Below, piece after piece: positions 24,001-30,000 of a stretch of DNA of 50,213 nucleotides (within the stretch, counting starts at the first letter, position 1; every line of letters starts with the position of its first letter). Source of the stretch: a virus (lineage: Duplodnaviria > Heunggongvirae > Uroviricota > Caudoviricetes); IMG/VR virus record IMGVR_UViG_2939521961_000003. The stretch is one strand, 5' to 3'. The position numbers were made by a program.

Positions 24001-27000
24001 GAATAGCGGCTAATGCGGTGGCTCTGCATAAGGATCACATTGTCGGGCATATGTTTCTGATCAGCTACCGTCCGAACTGGCGCTGGCTGGGGATGCGGGA
24101 GACCGCAGCAAAAAGCTTTGTCGATGAGGTGGAGGCGGCCTGGTCGGAATACGCCGAAGGGATGTCTGGCGAGATCGACGTGGAAGGAAAACGCACGTTC
24201 ACGGAATTTATCCGTGAAGGTGTGGGCGTTCATGCGTTTAACGGCGAAATCTTTGTGCAGCCGGTCTGGGATACGGAAACCACGCAGTTATTCCGTACGC
24301 GTTTTAAAGCCGTGAGTCCGAAACGGGTGGACACGCCAGGACACGGTATGGGGAACCGTTTTCTGCGGGCCGGGGTGGAGGTCGATCGATATGGCCGTGC
24401 CGTTGCGTACCATATCTGTGAGGATGATTTTCCGTTCTCCGGGAGTGGACGATGGGAACGGATCCCGCGTGAACTTCCCACCGGGCGTCCGGCCATGCTG
24501 CATATTTTCGAGCCGGTGGAGGACGGGCAGACCCGTGGGGCCAACCAGTTTTACAGCGTCATGGAACGGCTGAAGATGCTCGATTCCCTGCAGGCAACAC
24601 AGCTTCAGTCGGCCATAGTGAAGGCGATGTATGCAGCGACGATTGAAAGTGAACTTGATACCGAAAAGGCCTTTGAATATATCGCCGGTGCGCCGCAGGG
24701 GCAGAAGGATAATCCGCTTATTAATATTCTGGATAAGTTCTCCACCTGGTATGACACGAATAACGTGACGCTGGGCGGTGTCAAAATTCCGCACCTTTTC
24801 CCCGGTGATGATCTGAAACTGCAGACTGCGCAGGATTCAGACAATGGATTTTCGGCGCTTGAACAGGCGCTGCTGCGGTATATCGCCGCCGGTCTTGGCG
24901 TTTCCTACGAACAGTTGTCCCGGGATTACTCGAAGGTCAGTTATTCAAGTGCCCGCGCCTCCGCCAATGAGTCGTGGCGCTATTTTATGGGACGACGAAA
25001 ATTTATTGCGTCCCGGCTGGCCACGCAGATGTTTTCCTGCTGGCTGGAAGAGGCACTTCTTCGGGGGATTATTCGTCCGCCACGGGCGCGTTTTGATTTT
25101 TATCAGGCGCGATCAGCCTGGTCACGGGCTGAGTGGATTGGAGCCGGAAGAATGGCCATTGACGGGCTCAAGGAAGTCCAGGAATCAGTGATGCGCATTG
25201 AGGCCGGACTGAGCACGTATGAGAAAGAGCTGGCGCTGATGGGCGAGGATTATCAGGACATTTTCCGCCAGCAGGTCAGGGAATCTGCTGAGCGACAAAA
25301 AGCCGGACTCTCACGTCCGGTGTGGATAGCGCAGGCGTATGAGCAGCAGATAGCGGAGAGTCGCAGGCCGGAAGAGGAGACAACACCACGTGAGACGTAA
25401 TCTTTCACACATTATTGCCGCAGCATTCAATGAACCGCTGCTTCTGGAGCCCGCCTATGCGCGGGTTTTCTTTTGCGCGCTCGGGCGCGAGATGGGGGCA
25501 TCAAGTCTTTCGGTACCACAACAGCAGGTACAGTTTGATGCTCCCGGAATGCTGGCTGAAACGTAAGCGTCGTCTCAGCACCGTCTGGCAGATCCTGAAA
25601 TTCCTGAGAGAATAGTGGACACCAAATATGGTGGACGCTATCCATGAAATCATTAACCGCAGTGCGTAAAAAAAGCCCTAATTATCCCGTTGAGTTCAAA
25701 ATCAAAATGGTTGAACTCTCGCATCGACCAGAGATCTCCGTAGCGCAACTCGCTCGTGAGCATGGGATCAACGATAATTTGCTGTTCAAGTGGCGCCAGT
25801 ACTGGCGCGAAGGAAAACTACGTCCTCCTTCAACAACAGAAAACAACGTGCCTGAGCTGCTCCCGATAACACTTGATGCCGAAGATGTTGTCCCTACAAC
25901 CTCCCCCCGGTCACAACCTGTAGCTGCTGCGACACCTGAATCACTCAATATCAGCTGTGAAGTGACGTTCCGGCACGGATCACTCCGTCTGAATGGTGCC
26001 ATCAGCGAAAATATCCTGAACCTGCTGATACGGGAGCTCAAACGTTGATCCCATTACCATCAGGGACAAAGATCTGGCTGGTCGCTGGCATCACCGATAT
26101 GAGAAACGGCTTCAACGGCCTGGCGGCAAAGGTGCAGACGACGCTGAAAGACGATCCGATGTCAGGTCACGTTTTTATCTTCCGTGGGCGTAATGGCAGT
26201 CAGGTAAAGCTCCTCTGGTCTACCGGCGATGGACTGTGTCTGCTGACCAAACGGCTGGAGCGCGGCCGCTTCGCCTGGCCGTCAGCCCGGGATGGCAAAG
26301 CGTTCCTCACACCGGCACAGCTGGCGATGCTGCTGGAAGGTATCGACTGGCGGCAGCCTAAAAGACTGCTTACGTCCCTGACTATGTTGTAAGCCTCTTT
26401 ATCCTGGTCGACGCTGAATGAGCCTGGTAATATACCCGGTATGAGCAGCTCACTTCCTGACGATATCAATGCACTGAAACGTCTCCTTGCCGAACAGGAG
26501 GCGCTGAACCGTGCCCTGCTGGAAAAGCTGAACGAGCGTGAACGCGAAATAGACCATCTGCAGGCACAGCTGGATAAGCTGCGCCGGATGAACTTCGGCA
26601 GCCGCTCCGAAAAAGTCTCCCGTCGTATCGCACAGATGGAAGCTGACCTGAAGGCACTTCAGAAAGAAAGTGATACCCTTACCGGTCGGGTTGACGACCC
26701 GGCCGTGCAGCGCCCGCTGCGTCAAACCCGCACCCGCAAACCGTTCCCCGAATCACTCCCCCGCGATGAAAAACGGCTGCTGCCGGCAGCATCATGCTGC
26801 CCGGAATGTGGAGGCTCACTGAGCTATCTGGGTGAGGATGCCGCCGAACAGCTGGAGTTGATGCGCAGCGCCTTCCGGGTTATCCGGACTGTACGTGAAA
26901 AGCATGCCTGTACTCAGTGCGATGCCATCGTGCAGGCCCCCGCGCCTTCACGGCCCATCGAGCGGGGTATCGCAGGACCGGGGCTGCTGGCCCGCGTGCT

Positions 27001-30000
27001 GATCTCAAAGTATGCAGAGCACACCCCGCTGTACCGCCAGTCTGAAATGTACGGCCGCCAGGGCGTGGAGCTGAGTCGTTCACTGCTGTCGGGCTGGGTG
27101 GATGCATGCTGCCGGCTACTGTCACCGCTGGAAGAAGCGCTTCAGGACTATGTGCTGACTGACGGTAAGCTCCATGCTGATGACACGCCTGTCCCGGTGC
27201 TGTTGCCAGGCAATAAGAAAACGAAGACCGGGCGGTTATGGACCTACGTTCGTGACGACCGTAACGCCGGGTCAACGCTGGCGCCGGCGGTGTTGTTCGC
27301 TTACAGCCCGGACAGAAAAGGCATCCATCCGCAGACCCATCTTGCGGGGTTCAGTGGTGTACTGCAGGCGGATGCATACGCCGGGTTCAACGAGCTGTAC
27401 CGGGATGGCCGGATAACGGAAGCCGCCTGTTGGGCTCACGCCCGCCGTAAAATCCACGATGTGCACGTTCGCACCCCGTCAGCCCTGACGGAGGAAGCGC
27501 TGAAACGGATCGGCGAACTGTACGCCATCGAGGCAGAGATAAGGGGAATGACGGCGGAGCAGCGCCTTGCCGAACGTCAGTTGAAAACGAAACCGCTGCT
27601 GAAATCCCTGGAAAGCTGGCTGCGTGAAAAGATGAAAACCCTGTCGCGACACTCAGAACTGGCGAAAGCGTTCGCATACGCCCTGAACCAGTGGCCGGCG
27701 CTGACGTACTATGCAGATGATGGCTGGGCTGAGGCGGACAATAACATCGCTGAAAATGCGTTGCGGATGGTCAGTCTGGGCCGCAAAAACTACCTGTTCT
27801 TCGGTTCGGATCATGGAGGAGAGCGGGGAGCGCTGCTGTACAGCCTGATCGGGACGTGCAAACTGAACGGAGTGGAGCCAGAAAGCTACCTCCGCTATGT
27901 CCTTGACGTCATAGCCGACTGGCCGATAAACCGGGTCGGCGAACTGCTCCCCTGGCGCGTAGCACTGCCGACTGAATAACACATCCCCGTCAATACGGTT
28001 CTTGCTGCACGCTTACGTTTGATGGTCGCCCCGCTGTTTTTGATGAGGCGGATTTTCCGGCAATTGCTGTTTATCTCACCGGCGCTGAATACACGGGCGA
28101 AGCGCTGGACAGCGATACCTGGCAGGCGGAGCTGCATATTGAAGTTTTCCTGCCTGCTCAGGTGCCGGATTCAGAGCTGGATTCGTGGATGGAAAGCCGG
28201 ATTTATCCGGCGATGAGTGCGATCCCGGCACTGTCAGGCCTGATTACCACGATGGTTACGCAGGGCTATGAGTATCGTCGTGATGACGATATGGCGTTAT
28301 GGAGTTCTGCTGATTTGACTTATTCCATTACATACGAGATGTGAGGACGATATGCCAACACCAAATCCCCTTGAGCCGGTAAAAGGTGCCGGTACCACCC
28401 TGTGGGTTTATAACGGTCAGGGTGATGCCTATGCAAACCCGTTGTCAGACGATAACTGGCAGCGACTGGCACAGGTAAAGGATCTGACGCCGGGCGAGAT
28501 GACGGCAGAACCCTACGATGATAACTACCTGGATGATGAAGACGCGGACTGGACTGCGACCGGGCAGGGGCAGAAGTCTGCAGGAGATACCAGTTTTACG
28601 CTGGCCTGGAAACCGGGAGAAGAAGGTCAGAAAGGGCTTATAGGCTGGTTTGAAAGCGGGGATGTGCGGGCCTATAAAATCCGTTTCCCGAACGGCACGG
28701 TGGATGTGTTCCGTGGCTGGGTCAGCAGTATCGGTAAGGCCGTAACGGCGAAGGAAGTGATCACCCGTACGGTGAAAGTGACCAACGTGGGTAAACCTTC
28801 TGTGGCGGAAGAACGCAGCGAAATTACGCCGGTCACTGCGATTAAGGTGACGCCGACATCTGGTACGGTGGCAAAAGGGAAAACAACAACCCTGACGGTT
28901 TCTTTTGAGCCGGAAAGTGCAACCGACAAAACGTTCAGAGCGGTTTCCGCCGATCCGTCAACGGGAACCATTGCTGTGAAAGATATGGCGATCACTGTGA
29001 CGGGGGTTAAGGCTGGAAAAGTGAGTATCCCCGTGATTTCCGGTAATGGTCAGTTTGCCACGGTAGCTGAAGTCACCGTTACTGAAGCGGGCGCTGCAGG
29101 GTAAACGGAGGTAATACATGTTTCTGAAAACCGAACAATTTGAATATAACGGTGTGTCCGTCACGCTTTCCGAGCTGTCTGCGCTGCAGCGTATCGAGCA
29201 TCTTGCCCTGCTGAAACGACGGGCAGAACAGGCTGAAGCCAGCGGTAACCTGCAGGTGAGCGTGGAAGACCTTGTCAGAACCGGCGCGTTTCTGGTGGCG
29301 ATGTCCCTGTGGCATAACCATCCACAGAAAACGGAGTCACCATCAATGAATGAGGCTGTGATGCAGATCGAACAGGAGGTGCTCACCACCTGGCCTGCTG
29401 ATGCCATTGCCCGGGCGGAAGACGTGGTGTTGCGTCTGTCCGGGATGAGCGGGGCTGTTCATGTGGATACGGATATCACCGAAGTGGCGAAAAATAACGC
29501 GCTTACTGATGATGATTTTTCTGCGGGAAAGTCTTCGACGGCGAGCTGAATTTTGCCCTCAGACTGGCGCGAGAGATGGGGAGGCCTGACTGGCGCGCCA
29601 TGCTTGCCGGGATGACATCCACCGAATATGCCGACTGGCGACATTTTTACCGCACGCATTATTTTCAGGATACCCAACTGGATATGCATTTTTCCGGGCT
29701 GATGTACGCTGTACTCAGCCTGTTTTTTTGCGATCCGGATATGCATCCCTCTGATTTCAGTCTGCTTGTCCCCCGGCATGAGGAAGAGCAGGTGGAGAGG
29801 CTGGATGAGGACAAAATGCTGATGCAGAAAGCGGCAGGACTTGCCGGAGGCGTCCGGTTCGGTGGGGACGGAGGGGGCGATATTTTATCGTCTGCGGATG
29901 TGGCGGATGTCATGGTGGATGATGCCGCATTAATGATGGCTTCAGCGGGGATTCCGGGAGGTGTGAGATATGTCCCAGCCGGTTGGTGATCTTATTATTG

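Follow-up and report, generated by a model that had tools for sequence, protein, structure and literature searches.

The question raised by this locus is how the head genes of a lambda-like prophage came to be replaced by an insertion sequence (IS) whose two flanks do not match. The stretch of DNA analysed here (IMG/VR record IMGVR_UViG_2939521961_000003; 50,213 bp, hereafter the window) comes from Escherichia coli O26:H11 and consists of a lambda-like prophage in decay that occupies the site between ybhC and ybhB. On either side of the IS, the gene order is that of lambda and phage 21 (Nu1-A-W-B-C(Nu3)-D-E-FI-FII-Z-U-V-G-T-H-M-L-K-I-J), with 95-98% identity to phage 21 or PhiR12_2_star on the left and 79-93% on the right. 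Unlike in lambda and phage 21, the segment from codon 58 of C to codon 23 of U is missing and ISEc22 stands in its place. The preliminary description had proposed that an IS66-family element replaces the capsid genes, with C cut at codon 58 and U resuming in the middle of the gene; sequence, Pfam and alignment all bear this out, and U resumes at codon 24.

The IS (25563-28016, plus strand) is a complete ISEc22 copy of 2,454 bp, a member of the IS66 family, with the left end GTAAGCGT... and the right end ...ACGCTTAC. Its name was taken from the RefSeq/PGAP label "IS66-like element ISEc22 family transposase". The three ORFs of the element follow one another on the plus strand and are all intact in the window: tnpA (25644-26048; 134 aa, IS66 accessory protein; Pfam HTH_Tnp_1, E = 9.1e-12), tnpB (26045-26392; 115 aa, IS66 Orf2-like accessory protein; TnpB_IS66, E = 4.4e-38) and tnpC (26441-27979; 512 aa, IS66-family DDE transposase; DDE_Tnp_IS66, E = 9.2e-107). 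In addition, Pfam places LZ, zf-IS66 and C-terminal IS66 domains in tnpC. The terminal inverted repeats are imperfect and start with GTAAGCG (IRL GTAAGCGTCG..., IRR GTAAGCGTGC...); the two agree at each of the first 8 bases and at 18 of the first 30. A perfect 12-bp palindrome at the junctions (AAACGTAAGCGT / ACGCTTACGTTT) was set aside, since 8 of its base pairs belong to the IS inverted repeat and the other 4 come from flanks that happen to be complementary. A promoter and terminator scan of 25300-28500 gave nothing exceeding the shuffled background.

To the left of the IS lies C' (25390-25566, plus strand), what is left of a head protease/scaffold gene homologous to lambda gpC and S49 peptidases, recognised from sequence and translation. 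It has 57 native codons, then the hybrid codon AC/G, whose G comes from the IS, and then the TAA of the IS end, so that the stop codon is indeed supplied by the IS terminus, as had been noted. Its translation (VRRNLSHIIAAAFNEPLLLEPAYARVFFCAL...GMLAET, then the stop) aligns with residues 1-58 of PhiR12_2_star gpC at 96.6% identity (E = 6e-31). The S49 peptidase and Nu3 scaffold domains are absent from C', which holds residues 1-58 only and gives no Pfam match. To the right of the IS, 'U (28018-28344, plus strand) is all that is left of the tail terminator gene, its 3' part, and encodes the 108 C-terminal residues announced in the preliminary description. By alignment to the intact 131-aa U, these are residues 24-131, and the match to Phage_tail_U (PF06141) covers positions 25-130 of 130 (E = 1.9e-52) and is not full-length. 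The 5' end of 'U has no start codon of its own, and its frame is entered from IS sequence. RefSeq already annotates both gene remnants as truncated pseudogenes ("S49 family peptidase, missing C-terminus" for C', and "missing N-terminus" for 'U).

Compared with the orthologous prophages of strains CAU16175 and B1_2 and with phage 21, the missing phage DNA amounts to 4,229 bp (4,197 bp when PhiR12_2_star is the reference), which is smaller than the deletion of about 6 kb that had been expected. When an intact relative supplied the queries, tblastn with D, E, FI, FII and Z gave no match anywhere in the 50-kb window, and the earlier claim that the head genes are gone holds. The prophage is without its capsid, scaffold, decoration, head-completion, tail-completion and tail-terminator genes. 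The genes around the gap look intact, also as described before. Upstream, Nu1 (21212-21721), terminase A (21693-23621), W (23605-23811) and portal B (23808-25400), all packaging genes on the plus strand, match Pfam and are full-length, with about 98% amino acid identity to PhiR12_2_star and no internal stops in the block (21212-25400). Downstream, the tail genes V, G, T, H, M, L, K, I and J (28352-38622, plus strand) are ORFs without internal stops, and V matches Phage_TTP_12 (E = 2e-68). All of the 24 late ORFs checked in the window are still open.

IS66 elements follow an 8-bp target duplication rule (PMC6778807). In the window, the left flank is GCTGAAAC (25555-25562), the left copy of a target duplication in gene C that surrounds ISEc22 in relatives, and the right flank is GTTTGATG (28017-28024), the right copy of a target duplication in gene U. 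The latter is native U sequence; an intact U reads ...GCGACGCT GTTTGATG GTCGCC at this site. The absence of an 8-bp duplication, as first described, is thus real. Five sibling ISEc22 copies are each bordered by a perfect 8-bp duplication (GCTGAAAC three times, GTTTGATG and ATATATTC). The rule therefore holds for the family in these siblings, and the window would be an exception because of recombination between copies. GTTTGATG also occurs inside C' at 25533-25540, and a microhomology between the two sites was considered; it was rejected, since the right-flank copy is native U and the copy in C reads GCTTGATG in a relative.

Using synthetic reciprocal-junction queries, we searched for precursors of the hybrid and found both simple insertions in relatives. 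ISEc22 lies in C, with the downstream head genes kept, in three genomes, and each copy has GCTGAAAC on both sides (CAU16175, L006; B1_2, L005; AUSMDU00014361, L007). In two of these genomes, ISEc22 also lies in U, with Z and the 5' end of U kept upstream; the copy of B1_2 (L004) has GTTTGATG on both sides, and for AUSMDU00014361 (L008) only the left junction was seen. The hybrid arrangement, GCTGAAAC at the left and GTTTGATG at the right, is present in the window and in strain 11368. Both the C and the U insertions are co-oriented with the late operon.

Furthermore, the precursors are linked to the two ends of the window prophage. The C-insertion prophages of CAU16175 and B1_2 adjoin ybhC and encode an identical integrase (WP_000533654.1). 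CAU16175 is 99.8% identical to the window over 10487-28017, and B1_2 is 100% identical over 1-9176. On the other side, the block of B1_2 that runs from the IS in U through 'U, the tail genes, nleH, cif and EspJ adjoins ybhB-bioA, as it does in strain 11368. Over 28017-33016, the window differs from this block at 7 positions, versus 113 from CAU16175.

We propose that the junction in the window came from recombination between two direct ISEc22 copies in one prophage, deleting the interval between them, and we put the probability of this reading, judged from the junctions and their relatives, at roughly 80%. Two copies would have inserted in the late operon in the same orientation, one at GCTGAAAC in gene C and the other at GTTTGATG in gene U, 4,229 bp downstream. 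We infer, rather than observe, the order of the two insertions, because CAU16175 has the C insertion and an intact U. Homologous recombination of the host, presumably of the RecA type, between the two 2,454-bp direct repeats would then have removed one IS together with the interval, about 6.7 kb in all; the remainder of C/Nu3 would have been lost with it, along with D, E, FI, FII, Z and U up to codon 23. The hybrid IS left behind would carry the outer flank of the C insertion at its left and that of the U insertion at its right. Thus, no target duplication would be visible, since the hybrid keeps one outer flank of each insertion. The U'-IS-'C reciprocal structure was found in no genome of the collection, which fits an interval that was excised and lost. 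No genome of the collection has both IS copies within one ybhC-ybhB prophage, a state through which the ancestor of the window would have passed. The window ISEc22 differs from the sibling copies of B1_2 and CAU16175 at 1 to 4 positions and from those of AUSMDU00014361 at more, mostly single-base gaps. Across the six copies there are only five variable positions, apart from single-base gaps of one low-quality assembly. These SNPs are too few to locate the crossover, and the single private variant of the window copy is uninformative on it.

In B1_2 and AUSMDU00014361, the C and U insertions sit in two different prophage loci. The junction might then have arisen by exchange between ISEc22 in C of the ybhC prophage and ISEc22 in U of a separate prophage at yfaT/yfaA, in inverted orientation on the chromosome, with later crossovers in the tail region restoring the flanks and removing the reciprocal product. 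From strain to strain, the prophages at ybhC and yfaT clearly have mosaic tail modules, and recombination between prophages that causes inversions has been documented in STEC (PMC8112680), but such a history would take at least three recombination events instead of one, and we consider it unlikely. Strain 11368 has canonical ybhC and ybhB flanks, which also rule out a simple-inversion model for this strain. In addition, its second prophage at yfaT/yfaA (a site located by coordinate walking) has an intact U, with no IS there and no reciprocal junction. A search from the yfaA side returned, among the matches listed, solely O111 and non-hybrid strains. Moreover, the U insertion of B1_2 is linked to the ybhB side, which argues that it was in the ybhC-ybhB prophage before B1_2 was rearranged. 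The two-locus layout of B1_2 would be explained by an extra event, a chromosomal exchange between its ybhC and yfaT prophages, and the B1_2 flanks support such an exchange.

If ISEc22 had inserted once, in C or in U, and its transposase had then deleted the adjacent DNA, no target duplication would be left either: in an intramolecular transposition, one end of the IS would attack a target close by, and the interval would be lost together with one of the two 8-bp repeats. IS-adjacent deletions of the IS629 / IS-excision-enhancer type have reportedly been found in EHEC by Kusumoto et al. in 2011. As here, the IS abuts the deletion and the target duplication is lacking; in the window prophage itself, an IS3-family element abuts another deletion. 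The IS-excision-enhancer mechanism acts at a single IS and has been described for IS3-family elements, IS1 and IS30; we know of no description for IS66. However, nothing in the IS629-type mechanism leads one to expect simple, independent insertions at both junctions. Here both junctions match, to the nucleotide, insertions with perfect 8-bp duplications in orthologous relatives, and a deletion would end by chance at the exact site and orientation of an independent insertion at roughly 1 in several thousand positions. We therefore regard an adjacent deletion as very improbable. The remaining possibility, a repeat-induced misjoin across ISEc22 copies during assembly, would draw on the multicopy nature of the element (an IS-spanning query matched 16-20 places per O26 genome), but we give it almost no credence. 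The right junction is present in 115 complete genomes from many laboratories and the left one in 114, the identical pair being common to about 113 from independent laboratories and platforms, and the sequence on both sides runs on collinearly to ybhC and ybhB. The named carriers of the hybrid junction are O26, except one record labelled O103.

Recombination between direct ISEc22 copies has a close counterpart in the At plasmid of Agrobacterium tumefaciens 15955, where a deletion arose by homologous recombination between two direct copies of IS66; the logic of mismatched flanks was demonstrated there by experiment, and the need for both copies was tested by deleting one (PMC6778807). The two cases share the IS family, the single IS kept at the deletion, the differing 8-bp flanks that equal the outer flanks of the parents, and parental copies that each have a perfect 8-bp duplication of their own. 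However, the Agrobacterium deletion took a 270-kb plasmid segment, whereas ours took 6.7 kb of a prophage late operon and was reconstructed from comparative genomics alone.

The deletion would have consequences beyond the head. It had been claimed that the prophage cannot build heads. This stands for its own coding capacity, but C, D and E genes are present in further lambdoid prophages of the same genomes, and defective EHEC prophages have been documented to complement one another in trans (PMC2669165). Judged from gene content, the loss of Z and of the first 23 codons of U would cripple tail completion too, and normal tails are unlikely without Z and U, although V to J are open. The window prophage is also without repressor, cII, O, P and ren, the genes of immunity and replication. 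Tailocin-like particles or induction would be unlikely because of this loss and the damage to Z and U. Four further IS copies are present in the prophage, and the deletion next to the IS3-family element directly adjoins that element. The prophage resembles defective lambdoid prophages of EHEC such as Sp3 of E. coli O157:H7 Sakai, which are lambda-like and have virulence-related genes, IS insertions and deletions; Sp3 is tabulated as lacking repressor, replication and head functions (PMC2669165). Unlike Sp3, the window comes from a different serotype and has a different IS (ISEc22), and the likeness is drawn from descriptions. Sp3 presumably occupies the same ybhC-ybhB site.

We found nothing specific in the literature on ISEc22 or on this O26 prophage. 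ISEc22-mediated loss of head genes is prophage decay of an everyday sort that existing annotation already records; its novelty is low, and its importance goes little beyond bookkeeping. The locus shows how one effector-carrying EHEC O26:H11 prophage became fixed in the chromosome, and it illustrates cleanly, in nature, the mismatched flanks that recombination between IS copies leaves, with both precursor states persisting in relatives. Four states (the IS in C alone, in both genes, as the hybrid, or as the hybrid followed by later decay) could serve as lineage markers in the O26 clonal complex. It also warns that a missing target duplication does not amount to a transposase-mediated deletion without comparative evidence. 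A more speculative reading, which we think rather improbable, is that the prophage, without head genes and repressor, is kept in the O26 prophage pool as a donor of parts (terminase, portal, tail) and a carrier of type III effectors, with ISEc22 copies as movable tracts of homology through which the prophages at ybhC and yfaT swap modules and invert the chromosome between them, as B1_2 suggests. The 24 open late ORFs may simply reflect a recent event.

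The region at 25390-28344 of the window consists of C' (the 5' remnant of a gpC-like protease/scaffold gene), a complete IS66-family element and 'U (the 3' remnant of the tail terminator gene), followed by the major tail gene V. The C' ORF starts at 25390 and overlaps the portal gene's 3' end, as gene C does in lambda and phage 21. It has 58 codons, of which 57 are native; in codon 58, AC is completed by the G that opens the IS, which also supplies the TAA stop. The element (25563-28016, 2,454 bp, ends GTAAGCGT...ACGCTTAC) is named ISEc22 in RefSeq. Its tnpA (25644-26048), tnpB (26045-26392) and tnpC (26441-27979) are intact ORFs; the first two match IS66 Pfam families and tnpC matches DDE_Tnp_IS66 (E 9e-107). 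'U runs from 28018 for 108 codons and covers positions 25-130 of 130 of Phage_tail_U (E 2e-52). The element is flanked by different 8-mers, GCTGAAAC (left) and GTTTGATG (right). All that the preliminary description had stated on C', the IS, 'U and the flanks was confirmed by translation, Pfam and flank reading. In addition, GTTTGATG recurs inside C' (25533-25540, 22 bp before the IS begins), and each IS end, extended by 4 flanking bases, makes up one arm of a perfect 12-bp inverted repeat, AAACGTAAGCGT / ACGCTTACGTTT (25559-25570 / 28009-28020). The recurrence and the repeat both look coincidental.

The prophage is integrated between ybhC and ybhB-bioA, and a 3.6-kb region is 100% identical to Escherichia coli O26:H11 strain 11368 (NC_013361.1, around 918.7-922.3 kb) and many other complete genomes. 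The right IS junction was found in 115 genomes and the left in 114, so about 113 share the hybrid arrangement. Thus, misassembly is excluded as its source. Nevertheless, the window is distinct from strain 11368, since it has private IS junctions found only in NIID080884, War and record OY754853.

A deletion of about 6 kb had been expected, but the actual loss is 4.2 kb. The phage 21 alignment runs up to phage base 4579 and resumes at base 8809, that of another phage, PhiR12_2_star (L003), stops at 4787 and resumes at 8984, and 4,229 bp separate the C and U insertion sites in the orthologous prophages of strains CAU16175 and B1_2. The lost genes are the remainder of C/Nu3, D, E, FI, FII, Z and codons 1-23 of U. 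The head genes had been described as absent, and a tblastn search for homologues elsewhere in the prophage agreed: no second copy of the lost head or tail-completion proteins was found in the whole window.

Synthetic junctions expected from a simple ISEc22 insertion at each site were searched against 5,426 complete E. coli genomes. The IS right end followed by GCTGAAAC and the rest of C was found in three of them (CAU16175, B1_2 and AUSMDU00014361), and the Z-U 5' end followed by GTTTGATG and the IS left end in two (B1_2 and AUSMDU00014361). In the strains bearing these precursors, flank reading showed that the IS is bounded by a perfect 8-bp duplication at each site. In the window and strain 11368, the IS has the C-insertion flank on its left and the U-insertion flank on its right. 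Such mismatched flanks point to homologous recombination between two directly repeated IS copies, of which they are the classical signature; an experiment in Agrobacterium demonstrated this logic for IS66 itself (PMC6778807). The intermediate would have carried co-oriented ISEc22 copies in C and U, 4.2 kb apart in one ybhC-ybhB prophage, and recombination would have removed 2,454 + 8 + 4,229 + 8 = 6,699 bp.

The precursor prophages are orthologous to that of the window on both sides. The C-insertion prophages of CAU16175 and B1_2 lie at ybhC with an identical integrase (WP_000533654.1), and they retain C, which the IS splits, as well as D, E, FI, FII, Z and an uninterrupted U. Identity to window 10487-28017 is 99.8% in CAU16175, and B1_2 matches window 1-9176 at 100%. 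On the right, the B1_2 U-insertion block (IS-'U-V...J-nleH-cif-EspJ) adjoins ybhB-bioA and shows 7 differences from window 28017-33016, where CAU16175 shows 113. The B1_2 loci (NZ_CP074764.1) read ybhC|int...nleA|yfaT' and yfaA|int...EspJ|ybhB, which suggests that the ybhC prophage traded its right half for that of a second prophage, located at yfaT/yfaA, with a crossover probably within the FII-Z-U segment that is identical in both. Reversing this exchange would place both IS copies in a single ybhC-ybhB prophage, in the same orientation and separated by 4.2 kb. Both exchanged prophages are co-oriented in the record, which implies that B1_2 underwent at least one more large inversion.

The most parsimonious history would be a single deletion in the lineage of the window together with a single prophage exchange in that of B1_2. 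Recombination between the ybhC and yfaT prophages could also have joined C' to 'U, but we rate this route lower because it requires at least three events, strain 11368 keeps canonical ybhC/ybhB flanks, and its yfaT-site prophage (NC_013361.1 3.089-3.131 Mb) has an intact U and a full C-to-Z gene set, with no reciprocal junction. We disfavour a transposase-mediated deletion next to a single ISEc22 insertion, since its endpoint would need to match by chance the exact site of an independent insertion. The 11368 yfaT-site prophage also has J split by another ISEc22 copy, an internal stop in terminase A and a major capsid gene annotated at 885 nt versus 1,029 nt.

The observation is thus real and its initial reading correct, with corrections to deletion size, mechanism and degree of decay. 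RefSeq already annotates both pseudogenes (C as 'S49 family peptidase, missing C-terminus', U as 'missing N-terminus'), and the mechanism is textbook, with direct IS66 precedent. A reconstruction in which both single-insertion precursors are still extant is tidy and unsurprising. Defective lambdoid prophages of EHEC/STEC are already well known to carry IS insertions and IS-linked deletions (PMC2669165, PMC8112680).

The window still has open ORFs for Nu1, A, W, B, V, G, T, H, M, L, K, I, J, lom and Q, as well as for the lysis genes. The protease/scaffold, decoration, major capsid, FI, FII, Z and a functional U are absent, so the prophage should be unable to make heads by itself. The claim that heads cannot be built holds for the prophage's own genes; it does not extend to the whole genome, because other lambdoid prophages there carry head genes. 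In lambda, U ends tube polymerisation and Z is required for functional tails, so normal tails or the suggested tailocin-like particles would be unlikely. A plus-strand scan of the IS gave no terminator signal stronger than background. The claim on heads is likewise limited by the documented trans-complementation between defective prophages of EHEC (PMC2669165).

Compared with CAU16175 and B1_2, the window lacks the entire immunity and replication region, 6.7 kb with the sieB 3' end, a cI-like repressor, cII, O, P, ren, ninB and ninE. In place of this region stands an IS3-family element (9177-10486, 1,310 bp), whose programmed-frameshift transposase is annotated in strain 11368. With the repressor-to-ninE region gone, the source of early transcription for Q expression is not obvious. 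The element adjoins the deletion directly (flanks 8563-9176 and 10487 onwards), and the loss looks like an IS-adjacent deletion. Its junction is common to only three complete genomes (NIID080884, War and OY754853). Beside it, an additional 3.56 kb is absent relative to strain 11368.

Two IS600 copies (40784-42046 and 47803-49065) occupy sites that are empty in strain 11368. One disrupts a tail-fibre C-terminal-domain gene, and the other lies within a DUF1076 (NleG-like) effector gene, about 12 bp from its start. Between erf and kil, the window has no IS600 but strain 11368 does. A second IS66-family element, of the ISCro1 family (45084-47782, about 2.7 kb, minus strand), lies in the effector region. 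A 99.9-100% identical copy is found about 50 bp upstream of the gene-C ISEc22 in B1_2 and AUSMDU00014361, and B1_2 has an additional copy between J and lom. As for cargo, an lpxR-family lipid A deacylase gene (12623-13582, minus strand) lies between the nin region and Q, and the type III effector genes nleH (42212-43093) and cif (43317-44144) lie downstream of the tail fibres; EspJ in strain 11368 is just past the window end. Upstream of the lysis cassette is a DUF6645/SASA-family carbohydrate esterase gene (about 16218-18082), which is annotated as frameshifted in strain 11368 and intact in CAU16175 and B1_2. Across this gene, the window and strain 11368 are 99.99% identical.
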